Assembly (NCBI RefSeq): GCF_003259895.1
Contig: NZ_QLME01000002.1
Coordinates: 123,489 to 155,488, forward strand
DNA length: 32,000 nucleotides
Reading direction: 5' to 3'
Source: Halanaerobium saccharolyticum
GTDB taxonomy: Bacteria; Bacillota; Halanaerobiia; Halanaerobiales; Halanaerobiaceae
Shown here in pieces: positions 4,514-26,546 of this stretch. Below the pieces are notes generated by a model. The model searched no databases and was not told the DNA's origin. It worked only from the letters and a program-made list of their open reading frames with translations. A program made the position numbers and the translations under genes. Positions within the stretch are counted from its first letter, which is position 1. Each line of letters begins with the position of its first letter.

Positions 4514-5233
4514 ATGGAAAAAAAAGAAATGCTCTATGAGGGAAAGGCCAAGCAGATTTTTAGTACAGATCAGGATGATCAGGTAATTGTGCACTTTAAA
4601 GATGATGCAACTGCCTTTGACGGTCAAAAAAAAGGTCAGATTGCAGAAAAGGGTAAGATTAATAATAAAATCAGCAATTTCTTTTTTAAGCTTTTAGAAG
4701 CAAAGGGTATCAAAACTCATTTAATAGAGGAATTGAATGAGCGTGATTCTCTTGTTAAAAAAGTAGAGATAATACCGCTGGAAGTTGTAATGCGCAATGT
4801 TGCAGCCGGCAGTCTGGCCAAAAGAGTTGGGATGGAAGAAGGGACTCCGCTTGAGCAGCCGGTTATTGAATTTTACTATAAAGATGATGAACTGGGAGAC
4901 CCTCTAATCAATGTTTCTCATATTGAGCTTTTAGGACTGGCCGGCCGCGAAGAGCTGGAAAGACTGATTGCACTCGGTCATAAAATTAATGATATTTTAG
5001 TTAAATTTCTAAAAGAGCGGAATGTAGACCTTGTTGACTTTAAACTGGAGTTTGGAAAAACAGCAGAGGGAGAAATTATCCTTGCTGATGAAATTACTCC
5101 TGATACCTGCCGCTTCTGGGATAGTGAATCTAAAGAAAAACTGGATAAGGACCGTTTCCGCCGTGATCTTGGTGATGTTGAAGAAGCTTATCATGAAATG
5201 TATAAGCGGATTACCGGCCAGGACTGGAAATAA
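4514..5233 (+). CDS. purC: SAICAR synthetase (PurC)
   Basis: LYEGKAKQIF, VEVVMRNVAAGSLAKR-like and LADEITPDTCRFWD motifs. Confidence 0.97.
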   Translation: MEKKEMLYEGKAKQIFSTDQDDQVIVHFKDDATAFDGQKKGQIAEKGKINNKISNFFFKLLEAKGIKTHLIEELNERDSLVKKVEIIPLEVVMRNVAAGSLAKRVGMEEGTPLEQPVIEFYYKDDELGDPLINVSHIELLGLAGREELERLIALGHKINDILVKFLKERNVDLVDFKLEFGKTAEGEIILADEITPDTCRFWDSESKEKLDKDRFRRDLGDVEEAYHEMYKRITGQDWK

Positions 5234-5521
5234 GCTAATCAGCTAATAATTAATAAGGATTCTATTTTATTAAAACAGAATATATCTCTTTCCATAGTAA
5301 TTTTAAAATGAATCTAAAATTCTAATTTCGCCTTAAATTGGACTACCTTCCCGATCACAGCCTCCTGCTGTGCGGTCAGTTCAGGACTTCGTGTCCTTCA
5401 GTCCAATTTAATACTCATTATCATCAAGATTCATTATTTAAAATTCCTGGTCTTTCGATATACTCTGTTTAGAATAAAATAGATTTCATTTAATAATATT
5501 TATACCTGATTAGCTTATTCC
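5226..5521. repeat. 296-bp nested imperfect palindrome with a branched core (structured RNA or MITE-like element)
   Basis: Paired arms: GGAAATAAGCTAATCAG (5226-5242)/CTGATTAGCTTATTCC (5506-5521); ATTCTATTTTATTAAAACAGAATATATC (5259-5286)/GATATACTCTGTTTAGAATAAAATAGAT (5457-5484); AATTTTAAAATGAATCT (5299-5315)/AGATTCATTATTTAAAATT (5427-5445); TTAAATTGGACT (5333-5344)/AGTCCAATTTAA (5400-5411, perfect 12 bp). Two inner hairpins: CACAGC/GCTGTG and AGGAC/GTCCT. Confidence 0.85.
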
Positions 5522-5641
5522 ATCCTGTCCGGATGGGTTAGAAGGATAACTATCACAAGAATTAAGTTGAATTAGAATAAAACTATAGAGTCGTTAAATA
5601 TATATTTCTTTAAAAAATAAATATAAGCATAACTTTATAGA

Positions 5642-5662
5642 AGCTTATTTCCAGCCTGGCGG
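5642..5662. repeat. Second inverted copy of the outer arm (AGCTTATTTCCAGCCTGGCGG)
   Basis: Its reverse complement, CCGCCAGGCTGGAAATAAGCT, matches 5214-5236 (CCGGCCAGGACTGGAAATAAGCT) apart from two 1-nt gaps. Confidence 0.75.
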
Positions 5663-5725
5663 TAGTTGGATCAGGGAGCAAAATTGATTTTAAATTATTT
5701 TTTAGTATTAAAGGGAGGAAAATTA

Positions 5726-7201
5726 ATGAGAGAAAGCTGTAATTTCTCTAAAGAAGCAAATAAAGTTCAGCCGGGTTCAAATGAGGTAGAGTTAACTCAG
5801 GCTGAGCTAAATGAAGATAAAATGAGCGAAGAATGTGGAGTTTTTGGCATTTTTAATGCTGATGGTGAAAGCAGTGCGGCAGAACTAACCTATCTGGGGC
5901 TGATTGCCCTGCAGCATAGAGGCCAGGAAAGCGCAGGTATTTGTGCCAATTATCAGGGAGAATTCAATCTGCATAAGAGTATGGGGCTGGTAGAGAGTGC
6001 TTTTGAAAAAGAAGATATTCGGAATTTAAAAGGTGAGATGGCAATCGGCCATGTCCGTTATTCTACCAGTGGTTCCAGCAAGCTTGCCAATGCCCAGCCA
6101 ATTTTAATCAACAGTATGAAAGGTGATCTGGCTCTGGCCCATAATGGTAATCTGGCCAATGGAGCAGAACTCAGAAACAATTTAGAAAGCAATGGTTCGA
6201 TTTTTCATTCTACTTTAGATACTGAGGTTATTGCTCACCTGGTAGCCCGATCCTTTGAAGATGATATTGTAGAAGCTTTAATCCAGAGCCTACATCAGTT
6301 AAAAGGTGGATTTTCGCTGGTGGCAATGACCAAAGATGAGCTGGTTGCTATTCGGGATCCTCGCGGTTTTAGACCACTTTCGATTGGGAAATTGGATAAC
6401 AGCTACATTGTGGCCTCAGAAAGCTGTGCATTTGATATTATTGGAGCTGAATTTGTGCGGGATGTTAACCCTGGTGAGGTTGTTGTAATTGATGAAGATG
6501 GAATTAACAGCAGGCGCTATACAGGTGAAAATGAGACCAGTCTCTGTGTTTTTGAATATATATATTTTGCCCGTCCTGACAGTAATATTTCCGGCCAGAA
6601 TGTACTGCTGGCCCGCAAAGAAATGGGGAAACAGCTGGCCCGGGAGATGGATGTTGAAGCTGATATTGTGGTGCCTGTACCTGATTCGGGAATTGCAGCA
6701 GCCTTAGGTTTTGCCGAAGAATCTGGAATCCCCTATGCTCAGGGTATTTTAAGGAACCGATATATGGGGAGGACTTTTATTCAGCCGACTCAGGAGATTA
6801 GAGATTTAAAAGTCAGATTAAAACTATCACCAATTAAAGAAATTATTAAAGATAAAAAAGTGATTTTAATAGATGATTCAATTGTCAGAGGGACAACCAG
6901 CAAGCAGATTATTGGGCGGATCAAAGAAGCGGGAGCCAAAGAAGTGCATATGGCTATTTCTTCACCACCTGTTGAACATCCCTGCTATTTTGGACTTGAT
7001 ACCTCACGCCGTCAGGAACTTATTGCCAGCAGTAATTCTGTAGAGGAAATAAGTGAACGCATCGGAGCTGACAGCCTTCATTACTTGAGCAAGCAGGGGA
7101 TGCTCCAATCAATTAAGACTGAAGTGGAGCTCGGATTCTGTACAGCCTGTTTTGATGGAGATTATCCGATAGACAGCCGCTACTTAAGTGAGGAGGAATA
7201 A
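5726..7201 (+). CDS. purF: Amidophosphoribosyltransferase (PurF), Fe-S/propeptide type
   Basis: CGVFGIFNADG N-nucleophile preceded by a propeptide; VPVPDSGIAAALGFAEESGIPY and KVILIDDSIVRGTTSKQI PRPP motif; AAAGGGAGG RBS. Confidence 0.96.
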   Translation: MRESCNFSKEANKVQPGSNEVELTQAELNEDKMSEECGVFGIFNADGESSAAELTYLGLIALQHRGQESAGICANYQGEFNLHKSMGLVESAFEKEDIRNLKGEMAIGHVRYSTSGSSKLANAQPILINSMKGDLALAHNGNLANGAELRNNLESNGSIFHSTLDTEVIAHLVARSFEDDIVEALIQSLHQLKGGFSLVAMTKDELVAIRDPRGFRPLSIGKLDNSYIVASESCAFDIIGAEFVRDVNPGEVVVIDEDGINSRRYTGENETSLCVFEYIYFARPDSNISGQNVLLARKEMGKQLAREMDVEADIVVPVPDSGIAAALGFAEESGIPYAQGILRNRYMGRTFIQPTQEIRDLKVRLKLSPIKEIIKDKKVILIDDSIVRGTTSKQIIGRIKEAGAKEVHMAISSPPVEHPCYFGLDTSRRQELIASSNSVEEISERIGADSLHYLSKQGMLQSIKTEVELGFCTACFDGDYPIDSRYLSEEE

Positions 7202-15229: not shown

Positions 15230-15460
15230 ATGCCTTTAGCAATGTTAAGACAGGGAGAGACAGCATGTATTAAAGAAATTGTCGGTGGAAGAACAGCCAG
15301 AGGAAAACTAACCGATATGGGATTTGTAAGCGGGAAAACAGTTAAGATTCACAGAAGTTCTGGTGGACCATTAATTGTTGGACTGGGTGATAATAGAATT
15401 GCACTAGGTAGAGGAATGGCACATAAAGTAATAGTAGATAACAAAGGGTGTGAAAATTAA
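15230..15460 (+). CDS. feoA: Ferrous iron transport protein A
   Basis: ARGKLTDMGFVSGKTVKIHRSSGGPLIVGLGDNRIALGRGMAHKVIV; directly upstream of feoB. Confidence 0.9.
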   Translation: MPLAMLRQGETACIKEIVGGRTARGKLTDMGFVSGKTVKIHRSSGGPLIVGLGDNRIALGRGMAHKVIVDNKGCEN

Positions 15461-17508
15461 TGGCTTTAAATAAAAGGGAAAGAAAAAATACAGAGCTTAA
15501 AGTTGCATTGGCGGGGAATCCAAACTCTGGTAAAACAACGATGTTCAATGAATTGACAGGTTCCAGACAGCATGTCGGAAACTGGCCTGGAGTAACAGTA
15601 GAAAAGAAAACAGGTCGTGCATTTTATCAGGATTATTCACTGGAAGTAATTGATCTTCCCGGTACATATTCTCTGGGAGCATATTCGGAAGATGAAGTTG
15701 TAGCCCGGGATTTTCTGACAGCTGGTGATTATGATGTAGTCTTAAATATTATCAACTCTGCTAACCTGGATCGGAATCTCTATTTTACAGTTCAGTTATT
15801 AGAAATGGGAGTAGACTTAATTGCAGTTTTAAATATGGCTGATGAGGCTGAGAAAAAAGGAATTAAAATTGATAAAAATAAATTAAGTCAGCTGCTGGGA
15901 ACACCTGTAGTAGAAACTGTAGCCAGCCGGGGTAGAGGAATTGATAATCTTTTAGAACAGACTGTTCAAAATAGAGATTTATCAGAAGCTTCCTTAAAAA
16001 TTAATTACGGCAGTGACATTGAAGATTTGATTAGTGAAGTAGTAGAAATGCTTAAGCAGTATGACTTTTCTCAGCAGATCAATCAGCGCTGGGCAGCAGT
16101 CAAGTTAATTGAGCATGACCCCGAAGCTGTAAAATTACTGGAAAGAGAAGTTGGAGCCTCAAAGGCTAAAAAGATTAAGAGTTTAATTGCAGAGAGAGAA
16201 CTTAAGGCTGAAGATGATTTTGATAATGTTATTATTGATAAAAAATATGAATTTATAAATAAAGTTATAGCCGAAAGTGTTCAGAGACCGACAGCAGACG
16301 AAGAACCCGAAAATGTTTCTGACAAAATTGATGCAGTTGTGACTAATAAATATCTTGGTATTCCAATTTTTATGGCAGTTATGTGGGCAATTTTTAAATT
16401 TACTTTTACTCTTGGTGATCCGCTGATTGGTTATATCGAAACCTTCTTTGAAATAGCCGGCGGCTGGATTGGAACACAGCTTTTAGAAATAGGAGTTTCG
16501 CCCTTGATCTCTTCCTTTATAACTGACGGAATTATTGGTGGTGTAGGTTCGGTACTGGTCTTTATACCAAATATCTTTTTGCTATTCCTGGCAATCGGTG
16601 TTTTAGAAGACAGTGGTTATATGTCCAGAGCCGCTTATGTAATGGATAAGGTAATGAGCAAGTTAGGACTGCACGGTAAGTCATTTATTCCTATGATTGT
16701 TGGTTTTGGCTGTAATGTTCCGGGAGTTATGGCGACCAGAACTTTAGACAGTAAGCGAGACCGCATTATTTCAATCTTAATTAATCCACTGATGTCCTGT
16801 TCTGCAAGATTACCAGTTTATGTTGTCTTTGCCGGTGCCTTATTTTCCAGCCATGCAAGTACTGTAGTTTTCTCACTTTATCTAATGGGGATTGTGATGG
16901 CAGTAATTATGGCCGGTATTTTCAACAAAATATTATTTAAAGGTGAGCGTTCTCACTTTGTAATGGAACTGCCTCCCTATCGTTTCCCGACTTTAAAAGG
17001 TGTAATTATTCATATGTGGGAAAAAGTAGGAGCCTTCCTCAAAAAAGCGGGAACAATTATTTTCTCAGTTGTTGTTTTAATCTGGGTTTTAGCTAATCTG
17101 CCTTTAGGGGTAGAATATGCATCTGCAGAAAGCTTTATCGGTCAGTTTGGTCAGCTGGTAGCTCCAATTTTTGCTCCATTAGGATTTGGCAGCTGGCAGG
17201 CAGCAGCCTCACTGGTCTTTGGTATTCTGGCAAAGGAAGTAGTTGTTGGAACTTTAGGAGTTGTTTATGCAGCAGGAGAAGGTGGATTAAGAACTGCTTT
17301 ACTGGCCAATTTTACTCCTCTGGCAGCTTATTCCTTCCTGACAATGGTACTTTTATATACACCGTGTATTGCAACTCTGGGAGCGATTAAATCTGAAACT
17401 CAGAGCTGGAAGTGGACTTTAATCACAGCTTCATACCTTTTTGTCTTAGCCTGGATAACAGCCTTTGTTATTTATCAGGGTGGTATGCTGCTCGGAATTG
17501 GTGTTTAA
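15460..17508 (+). CDS. feoB: Ferrous iron transport protein B
   Basis: ALAGNPNSGKTTMFNELTG, VGNWPGVTVEKKTG, DLPGTYSL, and Gate-type membrane core. Confidence 0.97.
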   Translation: MALNKRERKNTELKVALAGNPNSGKTTMFNELTGSRQHVGNWPGVTVEKKTGRAFYQDYSLEVIDLPGTYSLGAYSEDEVVARDFLTAGDYDVVLNIINSANLDRNLYFTVQLLEMGVDLIAVLNMADEAEKKGIKIDKNKLSQLLGTPVVETVASRGRGIDNLLEQTVQNRDLSEASLKINYGSDIEDLISEVVEMLKQYDFSQQINQRWAAVKLIEHDPEAVKLLEREVGASKAKKIKSLIAERELKAEDDFDNVIIDKKYEFINKVIAESVQRPTADEEPENVSDKIDAVVTNKYLGIPIFMAVMWAIFKFTFTLGDPLIGYIETFFEIAGGWIGTQLLEIGVSPLISSFITDGIIGGVGSVLVFIPNIFLLFLAIGVLEDSGYMSRAAYVMDKVMSKLGLHGKSFIPMIVGFGCNVPGVMATRTLDSKRDRIISILINPLMSCSARLPVYVVFAGALFSSHASTVVFSLYLMGIVMAVIMAGIFNKILFKGERSHFVMELPPYRFPTLKGVIIHMWEKVGAFLKKAGTIIFSVVVLIWVLANLPLGVEYASAESFIGQFGQLVAPIFAPLGFGSWQAAASLVFGILAKEVVVGTLGVVYAAGEGGLRTALLANFTPLAAYSFLTMVLLYTPCIATLGAIKSETQSWKWTLITASYLFVLAWITAFVIYQGGMLLGIGV

Positions 17509-17734: not shown

Positions 17735-17780
17735 TATAGGTACCAGGTACAAATAGGCCTATTTGTACCTGGTACCTATA
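17735..17780. repeat. Perfect 46-bp palindrome, copy B of the GTACCTGGTACC repeat family
   Basis: TATAGGTACCAGGTACAAATAGG/CCTATTTGTACCTGGTACCTATA. Confidence 0.9.
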
Positions 17781-18382: not shown

Positions 18383-18877
18383 ATGAGTAAAATTGGAGTC
18401 TTTTATGGTAGTACTACAGGAGATACTGAGGAATTGGTTATGAGTCTGGCAGCAGAATTTAAAGATTATGATATTGATATTTATAATGTTAATTCAGCTG
18501 CTAAAGAAGATCTTGAAAGTTATGATAATTTGATTTTTGCTTCTTCAACCTGGGGTTTTGGTGAACTTCAGGATGACTGGGCAGATTTTGTAGATGTAGT
18601 TAAAGAGGTAGACTTAAGTAGTAAAAAAGTTGCCTTTATTGGTACGGGAGATCAGGATATGTATCCGGATACCTTTATAGATGCTATTGGAATCATTTAT
18701 GAAGCAGTAAAAGATAGTGGTGCAGAATTTGTGGGTCAATATCCTGTTGAGAGTTATGACTTTAACGACTCAAGAGCAGTAGTAGATGGGAAATTAATAG
18801 GTTTAGCAATAGATAACACAAATCAGGAAGAATTAACTGCTGAAAGACTTAGTGAGTGGAGTTCGGATTTATTCTAA
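18383..18877 (+). CDS. Flavodoxin
   Basis: IGVFYGSTTGDTEELV FMN-phosphate loop, ASSTWGFGELQDDW and GTGDQDMYPDTF motifs. Confidence 0.95.
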   Translation: MSKIGVFYGSTTGDTEELVMSLAAEFKDYDIDIYNVNSAAKEDLESYDNLIFASSTWGFGELQDDWADFVDVVKEVDLSSKKVAFIGTGDQDMYPDTFIDAIGIIYEAVKDSGAEFVGQYPVESYDFNDSRAVVDGKLIGLAIDNTNQEELTAERLSEWSSDLF

Positions 18878-23420: not shown

Positions 23421-25262
23421 GTGCTCAAAATAGTGATTATTATAAATGATCTAATAGAAAAAAACAAAATGAAATCTCACCTTAATCGAGCAAAAAGAAA
23501 AATTGCTGATTTTGATTTTGAACTGGTTAAAGAATTTGATAATAACCGCCAGGCAGTTAATTATCTTTATCAAAATTCCGATGTAGATATAATAATAGTT
23601 GAAAATGCAATGGGTAAAGTGTTTTCTGGACTGGATTTAGTAATGCTGGCAGAAAAAGAATTTCCCCGCTCAAGTTTAATCCTTTTAAATGAGCCTGGTA
23701 GTGAGCTTGAACTTGATTCTAGAAATGTCAGCAATCTGACTGCCATTTTAAATAAGAGGGAAAGTTATTCTACTTTCAGTAATCTGCTATTATTGACTAT
23801 TTTGAAGCAGAAACGCAAAAATGAAGAATCCAGAAAAAGAGAAAAAAAGTTGAATGATTATCGGACAATTATTGATCACACTCATGATGCAATTTTTTTG
23901 CTGGCAGTAGATTGTGACGAAAATTTTTACTATAAGAGAATTAATGCTACTCATCAGCGTTTAACAGCCCTGAGCAATGCCGAAATTCAGGGAAAAAGGA
24001 CTGCTGAAATTTTTGGCGAAGAAGTTGCAGAAAAATTGGAGAAAAACTACCTCAGATGTCTAAGAAAAAAAGAGCGAATTAATTATACGGAGAAATTGAA
24101 ATTTCCTGCTGGGCAAAAGTACTGGCAGACAACATTATACCCGGTTGTTCGAAATGGCAGAGTCGAAGAAATTGTTGGAGCTTCCTATGATATAACTGAT
24201 ATGGAGGCTAAACAGCAGCGGTTAGATTATATTAAAAGACACGATAGACTGACCGGGCTTTACAATAAAGAATACTTCAACCAATTATTTACTGAGCTTA
24301 ATCAAAATCAAAAAGATGATCTGTCTTTAATACTGCTCAATGTTGAAAATTTTCAGCTGCTAAATAAGTTTTTTAGTTATCAAAAAGGAGATCAAATTTT
24401 AAAAGAAATTGCCTCTGTTCTGGCTCAAATTTCGAACCACAATAAAGTTGCAGCCCATCTCTGTGCAGATCATTTTGCTGTAATTTTAAAAAACCAGAGC
24501 AGTTTAGAAGTAGAAAGAACCCTTAATTTTATTAAAAAAGAAATTGCTCAAATTAATATTAAGGGAATTTATATAGATATCGCTGCAGTCTCTCTAAATA
24601 AAGTAAATAATAAAATAAGCAGTCATGATTTCTTTAATGATGGGGTTTCAAAAATAAATTTTCATAGATATAAATCAAGTCAGGATAGCAGTTTCTACTG
24701 CTCATTAATGAAGTATCTCGAGGAAAATAATGATAATGAATTAAGGCAGTATGAAGAGCTTGTTAAAATAACCAAAAAAGCTGCTGCTTATTTTGAATTA
24801 AATGAAAAAGAAAAAGATAAGCTGCTGCATCTGGCCAGACACCATGATCTGGGTAAATTAGCACTGGATAAAAACATTCTCAAAAAGGGAGATAGTTTAA
24901 CAGCAGAAGAGTGGCACGAATATCAAAAACATGTGTTGATCTCTGCTAATTTTGCTGCTTCTTATCAGGATCTGGCGGGAATTTGTGATCTCATTTATTC
25001 TCACCATGAACATTTTGACGGCAGCGGCTGGCCCGAAGGACTAAAAGGGGAAAAGATTCCATATTTAAGCAGGCTTTTTGCAGTCATTAATTTTTACAGT
25101 AAACTTAAATCAAATCTATTTTTTTCTTTTTCCAGAGATAAGTATTATTTTGGAGCCCTGGCAGAGAAAGAAATAGTTAGAGAATTCAATCACTATCGGA
25201 AAAAAGTTTTTGATCCGCAAATTGTGGATAAATTTTTATCTTTTCTTAAAATTAAAAGTTAA
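23421..25262 (+). CDS. Signalling protein: receiver-like N-terminus, PAS, degenerate GGDEF, HD-GYP-like domain
   Basis: RHDRLTGLYNKEYF; ADHFAVIL in place of GGDEF; ARHHDLGKLALDKNILKKGDSLTAEEWHEYQKHV and HHEHFDGSGWPEGLKGEKIP. Confidence 0.88.
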   Translation: MLKIVIIINDLIEKNKMKSHLNRAKRKIADFDFELVKEFDNNRQAVNYLYQNSDVDIIIVENAMGKVFSGLDLVMLAEKEFPRSSLILLNEPGSELELDSRNVSNLTAILNKRESYSTFSNLLLLTILKQKRKNEESRKREKKLNDYRTIIDHTHDAIFLLAVDCDENFYYKRINATHQRLTALSNAEIQGKRTAEIFGEEVAEKLEKNYLRCLRKKERINYTEKLKFPAGQKYWQTTLYPVVRNGRVEEIVGASYDITDMEAKQQRLDYIKRHDRLTGLYNKEYFNQLFTELNQNQKDDLSLILLNVENFQLLNKFFSYQKGDQILKEIASVLAQISNHNKVAAHLCADHFAVILKNQSSLEVERTLNFIKKEIAQINIKGIYIDIAAVSLNKVNNKISSHDFFNDGVSKINFHRYKSSQDSSFYCSLMKYLEENNDNELRQYEELVKITKKAAAYFELNEKEKDKLLHLARHHDLGKLALDKNILKKGDSLTAEEWHEYQKHVLISANFAASYQDLAGICDLIYSHHEHFDGSGWPEGLKGEKIPYLSRLFAVINFYSKLKSNLFFSFSRDKYYFGALAEKEIVREFNHYRKKVFDPQIVDKFLSFLKIKS

Positions 25263-25405
25263 GTGGATAAGTAGATTTAATTCGATAGTTATCCACAAGT
25301 TACTCACAAAACAGGTGTTTTATCCACAGTTGTTAACAATTAATCAACAAAAATTGTGGATTAAAACCCATAGTTACCAACAAGTTATCCACAAAATGTG
25401 GATAT
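25223..25405. promoter_or_regulatory. DnaA-box cluster (oriC-like or DnaA-titration/regulatory site)
   Basis: Perfect TTATCCACA at 25289-25297(+), 25320-25328(+), 25385-25393(+) and 25223-25231(-). One-mismatch boxes at 25262-25270(-), 25355-25363(-) and 25397-25405(-). AT-rich tract follows to about 25470. Confidence 0.7.
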
Positions 25406-25496: not shown

Positions 25497-26546
25497 ATGA
25501 GAAAATTTTCGCGAGTTAAGTCAAGTGAAATCGGGCATACTCCTGGAACTTTACACGGGATTGAGACAGAAGTAGATGCCGAAATTGAATTAATACAGTT
25601 TAATGAAAATTTTGTTGAGAAAAAAACTGTGGAAGATTTTTCTTTAGAATTACTGGAAGCAGATTATGTCAACTGGATTAATATTACCGGAATTCACGAC
25701 GTGGAATTGGTTAAAGAGGTTGGAAAATCAATTGATTTACATCCTCTTACTTTAGAAGATATTACAAATACCCGCCAGCGTCCTAAAAAGGAAGAGTTTG
25801 AGGACTACATTATTACAATCCTGGATATGCTGAGCTATCAGGGAGAATACATTCAGTCAGAACAGGTGAGTTTAATTTTGCTGGAGAATACAGTTATTAC
25901 TTTTCAGGAAGCCCGGGGTGATGACTTTAATCCGGTTCGAGTCAGAATTGAGGAAAATAAGGGACAGATTAGAAAAAAGAAAGCTGATTATTTATTTTAT
26001 GCCTTACTGGATTCAATAGTAGATAATTATTTTCACATTTTAGAAAGGAACGAAGAGGTTTTAGAGGAGCTGGATGATTTAGTTGTTGCAGCTAAAACAG
26101 GGCCTGATACTTTAGAGACTATTCAGGATTTAAAACAGGAAGTAGTTTTTTTGCGCAAGACTATCTGGCCTTTAAATACAATTTTTGGCAACCTTTATCG
26201 GGTAGAATCACCACTGGTAAAAAAAGAAACAGATTATTATCTGCGTGATGTTTATGATCATATTGGACAGCTGATGGATGAGATTGACGTCAGCCGGGAC
26301 ATGCTGTCAAGTATGCTGGATATTTATCTTTCCAATAAGAGCAACAAGATGAACGAAGTAATGCAGTTTTTAACAGTTATCTCTACCATTTTTATCCCCC
26401 TGACTTTTATTGCCGGAGTTTATGGAATGAATTTTGCCTATATGCCGGAGTTAGAACATGAACTTGCCTATCCTGCTGTAATGTTTTTGATGCTGGTGAT
26501 TGCTGTAATCCAATTAATTTATTTTAAGAGAAAAAAATGGTTCTAG
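25497..26546 (+). CDS. corA: CorA-family Mg2+/Co2+ transporter
   Basis: C-terminal FIPLTFIAGVYGMNFAYMPELE with the GMN motif and two TM helices. Confidence 0.96.
   Translation: MRKFSRVKSSEIGHTPGTLHGIETEVDAEIELIQFNENFVEKKTVEDFSLELLEADYVNWINITGIHDVELVKEVGKSIDLHPLTLEDITNTRQRPKKEEFEDYIITILDMLSYQGEYIQSEQVSLILLENTVITFQEARGDDFNPVRVRIEENKGQIRKKKADYLFYALLDSIVDNYFHILERNEEVLEELDDLVVAAKTGPDTLETIQDLKQEVVFLRKTIWPLNTIFGNLYRVESPLVKKETDYYLRDVYDHIGQLMDEIDVSRDMLSSMLDIYLSNKSNKMNEVMQFLTVISTIFIPLTFIAGVYGMNFAYMPELEHELAYPAVMFLMLVIAVIQLIYFKRKKWF

Follow-up and report, generated by a model that had tools for sequence, protein, structure and literature searches.

The window analysed here is a 32,000-nucleotide stretch of Halanaerobium saccharolyticum DNA (contig NZ_QLME01000002.1), and its positions 5226-5521, between the purine genes purC and purF, form a long imperfect palindrome. 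With no more than moderate confidence, we read this interval as a complete W-type copy of a low-copy, non-coding foldback family of the H. saccharolyticum/congolense group, which resembles miniature inverted-repeat transposable elements (MITEs), would be co-transcribed with its neighbours and may have been shaped by template switching. The anatomy of the element is an AT-rich imperfect palindrome of 190-320 bp, tipped by a module of ~141 nt; at its base, the palindrome adjoins or takes in the stop codon of the preceding gene. So far the family seems to have gone undescribed; literature searches found no published description of such an element in Halanaerobium.

An inverted-repeat search of the window recovered the arm pairs 5229-5250/5498-5519 (22 nt, 86% match), 5261-5271/5473-5483 (11 nt, 100%), 5273-5286/5457-5470 (14 nt, 93%) and 5307-5315/5427-5435 (9 nt, 100%), together with the perfect 12-bp helix 5333-5344/5400-5411. 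At minimum energy, 5226-5521 folded into a single bulged rod with a three-way junction at its tip, where that helix encloses the hairpins 5356-5372 and 5383-5397. The plus strand reached -86.7 kcal/mol, compared to -41.6 +/- 4.4 for shuffled sequences (z = -10.4), and the minus strand -106.8 kcal/mol (z = -12.3); none of the 200 shuffles folded as well. The core had a GC fraction of 0.48 and the arms one of 0.22-0.24. An earlier, sequence-only reading of this DNA had described these arm pairs, the closing helix with its two inner hairpins, a start within the last purC codons and a GC-rich junction on AT-rich arms, and all of these were found. The palindrome is therefore real, but the interval given for it was too short. 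Positions 5512-5532 repeat the last 20 nt of purC plus GCT in inverted form (20 of 23 matches to the reverse complement of 5214-5236, reached by 0 of 2000 shuffles), so the symmetry extends over 5214-5532, and the DNA fold of 5211-5545 had z = -12.4. The resulting 319-bp element ends in AATAAGCTAATCAG / CTGATTAGCTTATT, a perfect 14-bp inverted repeat, although terminal inverted repeats of the kind expected of MITEs are trivial in an element that is palindromic over its full length. The purC 3' end is repeated in inverted form once more at 5642-5664 (23 of 25 matches with two 1-nt gaps, 0 of 2000 shuffles). When the wider region proposed for folding was examined as 5205-5730, 5209-5236 paired with 5642-5668 in a ~26-bp helix that closes the whole insertion. 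The palindrome is thus predicted to be nested within a larger closed domain.

Comparison with related loci (L numbers below) showed that the palindrome lies in inserted DNA. The distance from the purC stop to the purF start was 25-27 bp, GGAAATAA-GTTTTAGCATTAAAGGGAGGAAAATTAATG, in H. praevalens and five other related loci (empty sites: L005, L006 (H. praevalens), L013, L014-16, L017), and 492 bp in the window. Given an ancestral spacer of 25-27 bp, ~465 bp (5234-5697) are inserted, and the native purF leader that follows is the entire content of the empty sites; the palindrome is thus not an ancestral leader of purF. Filled sites were the window, L002-4, L008-12, L020, L025, L026, L028 and L029, so presence/absence polymorphism among close relatives, as known for MITEs, does occur at purC-purF. 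In the purC tree, the filled sites formed a clade with empty outgroups, and two empty alleles were nested inside it, which implies either several gains or a single gain with later losses or allele replacement. At the eda locus described below, no empty site could be identified, since 20 of 20 close relatives were filled and the next relative had different synteny.

The purC-purF locus is prone to rearrangement. T1, a second type of the element, stood alone in L011, L012 and L025; in L008 and L029 it was followed in tandem by a W copy without the outer left arm, and L009 carried W plus a partial third unit. In L004, deletions at short direct repeats had removed the centre, the T1 arm and part of the right arm and left a derivative of 155 bp. 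An insertion sequence (IS) of the ISL3 family interrupted the W-type left arm at the equivalent of window position 5311/5312 (L002 3302-5657, L003 1846-1863; JGI metagenomes 3300027365 and 3300009194). It carried two transposase genes in L002, the only transposases seen, and its end reads GGTTCTTCTCCGTTTCCG; the IS was inserted into the element, and its ends are unrelated to those of the element.

The 141-nt module (5305-5446) occurred in four types, 53-64% identical to each other: W and T1, which share the purC-purF locus and may stand there in tandem, a third in the spacer that separates eda (KDPG aldolase) from kdgK, and a fourth after a cheV-like gene. Scanning a genome collection with an arm pattern returned only orthologous purC-purF copies, including L008 with two tandem units; a match in a Methylococcales coding region was dismissed as chance. 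The first unit of L008, of the T1 type, had a core ~60% identical to the W core, with the junction kept through many double substitutions. A metagenome scan, its core pattern drawn from positions that do not differ between W and T1, added five purC-purF copies, one eda-kdgK copy (L021) and one copy after a cheV-like gene (L022); six GC-rich matches were again attributed to chance. The covariance model R1, which scored the window module at 160.7 bits (E = 8e-33), found the eda-kdgK copy in 20 of 20 further Halanaerobium loci from isolates and metagenomes (L031-L050), making 21 of 21 with L021. At purC-purF, the core pattern and R1 located the module in L008-L012, L020, L025, L026, L028 and L029, and weak partial matches of the covariance model represented remnants. 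A purC-purF copy (L028) and an eda-kdgK copy (L038) came from the same metagenome, with both loci occupied in the same species group. Every copy formed the tip of a long rod based at the stop codon of the upstream gene and lay in the sense orientation relative to its flanking genes (3 of 3 loci). All four types folded as rods with z of -6 to -10, and T1 by itself gave a rod of ~300 nt. The sequence-only reading had looked to homologues with compensatory changes and to extra copies; the former exist across types, and the latter at eda-kdgK and after the cheV-like gene.

We also observed a second, unrelated imperfect hairpin, GACTGGATTGCTC...GAGCAGGTTAGTC, in the eda-kdgK spacer 3' of the palindrome (L032 2345-2440 / L021 5926-6104). 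The L021 spacer differed from those of 20 other loci by a 56-bp indel.

Base pairing in the module covaried. In a model-based alignment of 14-16 sequences, which was itself fitted to the model and comprises only 4-5 independent lineages, standard pairs filled 90.6-91.9% of the cells and 19 of 38 pairs showed double-sided changes. Controls with the partners slid by 1-3 columns gave 28-42% paired cells and 2-5 double-sided pairs, and 0-1 of 500 shuffles reached the observed pairing values. The covariation extended to all four helices. The unpaired positions that were fixed included CUAA[A/G]AUUC on the 5' side of P1, the UCCUG of the P2 loop, the AG.UC at the P2-P3 junction and, on the 3' side, AU.AAG. 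In three types, the P2 loop reads CCUCCU(G) and resembles the anti-Shine-Dalgarno sequence of 16S rRNA; the likeness is not family-wide because the same loop (L2) is AUAUCCUG in 20 eda-type copies. G.U pairs were rare (13 of 532 cells, with A.C in 7 of 532), and the antisense strand folded as well as the sense strand or better, which fits RNA and single-stranded DNA alike, on either strand, as the form under selection.

Conservation was expressed as mean identity over six W-type orthologues and compared with four-fold degenerate sites of purC and purF from the same pairs. The values were 98.8% for the left arm, 97.3% for the core, 96.4% for the 3' side of the module and 93.9%, among W-type strains, for an orphan T1 arm further downstream. 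The right arm (86%), linker and tail reached only 83-86%, and the four-fold sites 65-82%. Similarly, the eda palindrome was 91% identical, compared to 71% at flanking four-fold sites. The T1 element was 95% identical between hosts whose purC genes agreed at 42% of four-fold sites and at 92.5% of codon positions 1+2. Judged from these alignments, conservation far above the neutral level would reflect purifying selection, recent spread between lineages, or both. The unevenness within the element favours selection, and the T1 identity, being above the protein-coding constraint, favours transfer.

These data bear on an alternative that we consider possible but doubtful, in which the module is a genuine class of functional structured RNA that has lost its mobility and works either as a small RNA or as a general intercistronic module in cis. 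Its conserved loops and junction would bind a protein, the ribosome (through the anti-Shine-Dalgarno-like CCUCCU loop) or another RNA, the rod would serve to present the junction, and the distribution would result from old acquisitions followed by purifying selection. The covariation in all four helices across 4-5 lineages, the invariant unpaired motifs, the non-coding identity of 94-99% against 65-82% at adjacent four-fold sites, the eda-kdgK copy in every locus of that kind and the uniform sense orientation agree with such a role. Moreover, unevenly conserved sub-regions are predicted by selection and not by wholesale recent transfer. Nevertheless, the purC-purF copy is wholly absent in close relatives, and the host genes are unrelated in function (purine synthesis, 2-keto-3-deoxygluconate (KDG) catabolism and chemotaxis). 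The near absence of G.U pairs, with an antisense strand that folds at least as well, would be unusual under strand-specific RNA selection, the anti-Shine-Dalgarno reading fails in the eda-type copies, and the T1 identities are explained more easily by transfer. A related proposal, which we put forward just as tentatively, is that the 141-nt module is a new functional structured-RNA class riding on a mobile rod, which inserts at stop codons and sets the expression ratio of the flanking cistrons; selection on this role, and not recent transfer, would then account for conservation above that of synonymous sites and, in T1, above that of adjacent protein-coding positions. It could do so by looping out to keep coupling, by recruiting a nuclease or another protein, or by sequestering a Shine-Dalgarno sequence with the CCUCCU loop.

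Strict Watson-Crick pairing is also what would be expected if the element were non-autonomous and were moved in the form of single-stranded DNA by an enzyme that recognises hairpins (IS200/IS605 PATE, REP/RAYT-like, or another HUH enzyme or recombinase). In that case, the conserved hairpins, loops and junction would be the recognition structure of the protein rather than an RNA. Stems that covary around fixed loops and junctions fit structure-specific DNA recognition, both strands fold equally well, and the orientation to genes is consistent. No target-site duplication was found at the copies, and IS200/IS605 elements make none (PMC7290912). Halanaerobium genomes contain many IS605 copies and one PATE-like element, and AAGCT is conserved in IS605/PATE hairpin loops (PMC7290912); in the present family, three types out of four start at ...AAGCT. 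The element thus shares with the IS200/IS605 ends and PATEs of Halanaerobium hydrogeniformans the genus, a non-coding body defined by hairpins, the missing target duplication and AAGCT (PMC7290912). However, the pentamer is their only link in sequence; a likeness of five bases could be chance, and the eda type has no AAG/CT start. PATEs have distinct left-end and right-end hairpins and sequence in common with IS605 elements bearing tnpA/tnpB (PMC7290912), whereas the present element is one continuous palindrome throughout its length, without distinct subterminal hairpins. No TnpA, TnpB or RAYT gene was found beside any copy or in the window, Rfam gave no match to the IS605-orfB/omega-RNA families, and the copy number is apparently low. 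We therefore regard movement as single-stranded DNA as unlikely.

The location and the three-way junction recall a riboswitch. We searched the 4227 models of Rfam 15 with cmscan, at the gathering score on the window, at E <= 10 on 4800-6000, and at E <= 5 on the T1-, eda- and cheV-type loci. No family reached the gathering score in the window, and nothing relevant appeared at the permissive thresholds; as a positive control, the scans detected the T-box leader upstream of serS (120 bits, L021 8687-8898, minus strand). A scan for transfer RNA and transfer-messenger RNA was likewise negative. The search bears out the earlier impression that the element matches none of the purine, ZTP, PRPP and THF riboswitches. 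It resembles these classes in its pur-operon location and in having a three-way junction of similar size, but differs in lacking an Rfam match, in not being conserved at the orthologous site, and in standing beside unrelated genes.

A dedicated cis-regulator of purF, that is, a novel riboswitch or attenuator sensing a purine-pathway metabolite, is accordingly very improbable in our view. Its position between purC and purF and its riboswitch-like junction are compatible with such a role, and the anti-Shine-Dalgarno-like loop could pair with the purF Shine-Dalgarno sequence (GGGAGG). The distribution largely refutes it: because the orthologous spacer is empty in six related loci, including H. 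praevalens, and the module recurs behind eda and behind a cheV-like gene, the element is not a pur-specific regulator. In addition, no riboswitch class matched at E <= 10, there is no terminator-like expression platform, and the module lies ~300 nt from the purF Shine-Dalgarno sequence. Two other candidates were examined and rejected. A hammerhead or other ribozyme at the junction was discarded by eye, as the conserved cores are lacking and Rfam gave no match. A switch in which the W left arm pairs with the orphan T1 right arm was discarded as well, the gain on cofolding coming mainly from the purC-end helix without a full alternative rod.

The sequence-only reading had posed a new structured RNA and a MITE-like element as alternatives. 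Both descriptions fit the same object, and it was a mistake to oppose them. From the MITE side, absence from the orthologous spacer in six loci and presence at unrelated loci hold, but no target duplication, partner transposase or high copy number was found; from the RNA side, covariation and strong conservation hold, while specific cis-regulation of purC/purF is unsupported.

The inverted purC ends raise the question of whether the palindrome arose on the spot. Quasipalindrome template-switch mutagenesis is a mutational mechanism known from E. coli genetics, and it would explain one-step Watson-Crick compensation as well as the inverted purC end on the far side. It is a mechanism and not a family, however, and leaves dispersal to other loci and the conserved loops unexplained. 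That the whole is a local accident, an in-situ inverted duplication or template-switch palindrome with neither family nor function, is hardly credible. The right ends do carry inverted copies of the purC coding end, in a rearrangement-prone locus, but homologous modules with the same architecture exist at two unrelated loci, conservation is far above neutral, and most of the arms have no counterpart in the empty site. The other loci thus refute it as a full explanation; all that remains of it is the mechanism by which the palindrome grew into purC. The right flank of the element carries an inverted copy of the left flank, and such extension into the upstream gene was strong at purC, amounted to 8 nt at eda (p about 0.02), and was absent at the cheV-like gene.

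In the foldback-family reading that we prefer, the element would have entered as a MITE-like mobile or recombining unit and would be co-transcribed within the pur operon, since its surroundings lack a detectable promoter or terminator. Over 5100-5800, neither kind of signal rose above background, and an intrinsic terminator was rejected, with 0 terminator-like sites on either strand and arms of 22-24% GC. In the mRNA, the rod domain would loop the insertion out and bring the purC stop near the purF ribosome-binding site. By analogy with ERIC, Correia and bcr1 elements, it might also act as an intercistronic processing or stability hairpin. As DNA, the palindrome would drive template-switch correction, which would yield the strictly Watson-Crick compensation and the growth into the purC coding end, and unequal recombination, which would yield tandem copies, partial copies and deletion derivatives.

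A weak sigma-70-like match lies antisense within the invariant left arm (5279-5307, minus strand; TTTAAA-17-TATATT, 9/12). It would direct transcription into purC, and its frequency equals the background for an AT-rich region.

Several observations weigh against the foldback-family reading. Direct repeats were found beside none of the W, T1, eda-type and cheV-type copies, no terminal sequence common to the elements could be defined, and no transposase partner was found. Self-BLAST and pattern searches revealed no further copy in the 32-kb window, the covariance model returned only known copies over the purC-purF-centred Halanaerobium loci, and the known loci number only three. The copy number is poorly bounded because the collection scans used exact patterns only, and there is no sign of recent transposition, as near-identical copies at different loci were not seen. 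Membership of the MITEs is only putative, as no target duplication, transposase partner or demonstrable high copy number was found. The left arm is nearly invariant though its pairing partner varies, which suggests a sequence-specific function that the favoured explanation does not supply; nor does the proposed mechanism account for the orphan T1 arm, 94% conserved despite the loss of its partner. The high conservation could alternatively reflect recent horizontal spread. We must also note that the exact ends of the element are uncertain because there is no empty site for a simple copy. Viral contigs scanned with four patterns gave no match, and neither did blastn against plasmids and phages.

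The features of the purC-purF region are collected in Table 1. The insertion divides the gene order purD-purK-purE-purB-purC from purF-purM-purN-purH. The window purC is identical to WP_111571041.1 of Halanaerobium saccharolyticum, and its 60-nt stretch containing the closing-helix strand was 93-98% conserved, compared to 75-95% for the remainder of the gene.

Table 1. Features of the purC-purF region, in window coordinates.
Feature	Position	Strand	Basis and remarks
purC (SAICAR synthase)	4514..5233	+	Open reading frame and Pfam PF01259; last ~25 nt form the rod base
Outermost closing helix, 5' strand	5209..5236	+	Last 8 purC codons, stop and GCT; predicted in the fold of 5205-5730
W-type left arm, AT-rich	5229..5304	+	Three inverted repeats; six orthologous copies
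141-nt family-defining module	5305..5446	+	Outer stem 5307-5315/5427-5435, CUAA[A/G]AUUC, three-way junction
Three-way-junction core	5333..5411	+	Fold and covariation; W-type orthologues
Core helix P1	5333-5344/5400-5411		
Core helix P2	5347-5361/5367-5379		Loop CUCCU 5362-5366
Core helix P3	5383-5387/5393-5397		Loop 5388-5392
W-type right arm	5447..5519	+	Inverted repeats; orthologues
Inverted purC 3'-end copy no. 1	5512..5532	+	AGCTTATT-CCA-TCCTGTCCGG; palindrome extended into coding sequence
Small hairpin	5518-5535		Overlaps inverted purC copy no. 1
Linker			Lies between inverted purC copy no. 1 and the orphan T1 arm
Orphan right arm of a second, T1-type element	5553..5641	+	Sequence match to the complete T1 of L011
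Inverted purC 3'-end copy no. 2, 3' strand of outermost closing helix	5642..5668	+	Predicted in the fold of 5205-5730
Degenerate duplicate of the purF Shine-Dalgarno region	5673..5688	+	AGGGAGCAAAATTGAT vs AGGGAGGAAAATTAAT at 5712-5727
Native purF leader	5698..5728	+	Shine-Dalgarno GGGAGG 5713-5718, ATG 5726; alignment with empty sites L005, L006, L014, L017

The T1 left arm and core are absent from the window genome. Between the orphan arm and its counterpart, the right arm in the complete T1 of L011, identity was 93.9%, with four-fold sites at 54-62%, and since the orphaned block is exactly the right arm of a T1 rod, it accounts for the perfect 13-nt inverted repeat 5224-5236/5642-5654. The duplicate of the purF Shine-Dalgarno region had 14 of 16 matches, reached by 21 of 2000 shuffles, and was clearer in L004 (3313-3345, TTTAGATTAGGGAGAAAAATTAAT); from its sequence, it could be the remnant of a long target duplication or of a tandem duplication of the leader. 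The frame stays open for 25 codons past the purC stop (5234-5311), through the near-invariant left arm (ANQLIINKDSILLKQNISLSIVILK, then a stop). This extension is probably chance because it is not conserved in T1, where a stop follows after 11 codons. A small open reading frame behind the invariant left arm was rejected, as W and T1 have none in common, and no open reading frame was conserved between element types.

The nearest parallels among known systems are short palindromic repeats from the intergenic regions of bacteria. One of them, bcr1 of the Bacillus cereus group (Group A), is ~155 bp long; each genome has many copies, with 5-bp direct repeats on their flanks (PMC3184786). Like it, the Halanaerobium element is a small, non-coding intergenic repeat of a Firmicute, with a distribution that is not conserved between close strains (PMC3184786). 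A further likeness may be drawn to the transcription of bcr1 with its neighbours and to its branched or cruciform RNA structure, kept by compensatory changes (PMC3184786). The Halanaerobium family differs in its length of 190-320 bp, its three known loci and its lack of detectable direct repeats, and in forming one long rod with a three-way-junction cap that starts at the upstream stop codon. The enterobacterial and neisserial MITEs ERIC, YPAL and Correia (NEMIS) are imperfect palindromes of 100-170 bp, intergenic and transcribed, often at the 3' ends of genes (PMC3184786). Being co-transcribed, they form long RNA hairpins that can alter mRNA stability or processing (PMC3184786), which is the mode of action we infer for the Halanaerobium element. 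Their terminal inverted repeats are well defined, however, and come with a TA duplication; the copies number tens to hundreds, lie in both orientations and have no conserved branched tip. Such a duplication, a high copy number and a second orientation were not found in the Halanaerobium family.

Two other sites in the window deserve mention. Seven DnaA-box-like 9-mers, four of them perfect TTATCCACA, lie in both orientations within 183 bp at 25223-25405, between a PAS-GGDEF-HD gene (23421-25262) and corA (25497-26546). The whole window had 19 DnaA-box matches with <=1 mismatch, compared to 8.6 expected, and the stretch folds with z = -7 because the boxes are opposed. On sequence grounds, this stretch, which does not adjoin dnaA, may be a DnaA-box cluster or a secondary site of DnaA binding. 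Between feoB (15460-17508) and a flavodoxin gene (18383-18877), a perfect 46-bp palindrome without spacer (17735-17780, TATAGGTACCAGGTACAAATAGG joined directly to CCTATTTGTACCTGGTACCTATA) precedes an A/T run and could be an operator or a terminator.

The analysis removes a tempting false lead, as the element is not a new purine-pathway riboswitch, and points instead to an apparently undescribed structured foldback family in Halanaerobium, the dominant genus of hydraulic-fracturing brines. It offers a clear case of non-coding DNA that was inserted into essential operons and shows conservation far above adjacent synonymous sites. Host coding sequence copied in inverted form onto the far side of the palindrome would be a direct footprint of template-switch palindrome growth. 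The covariance model, together with the empty and filled alleles, makes the question of RNA or DNA directly testable. Should the element act as RNA, it would amount to a portable regulatory domain between cistrons; action as DNA would instead point to an unrecognised hairpin-dependent mobility system.

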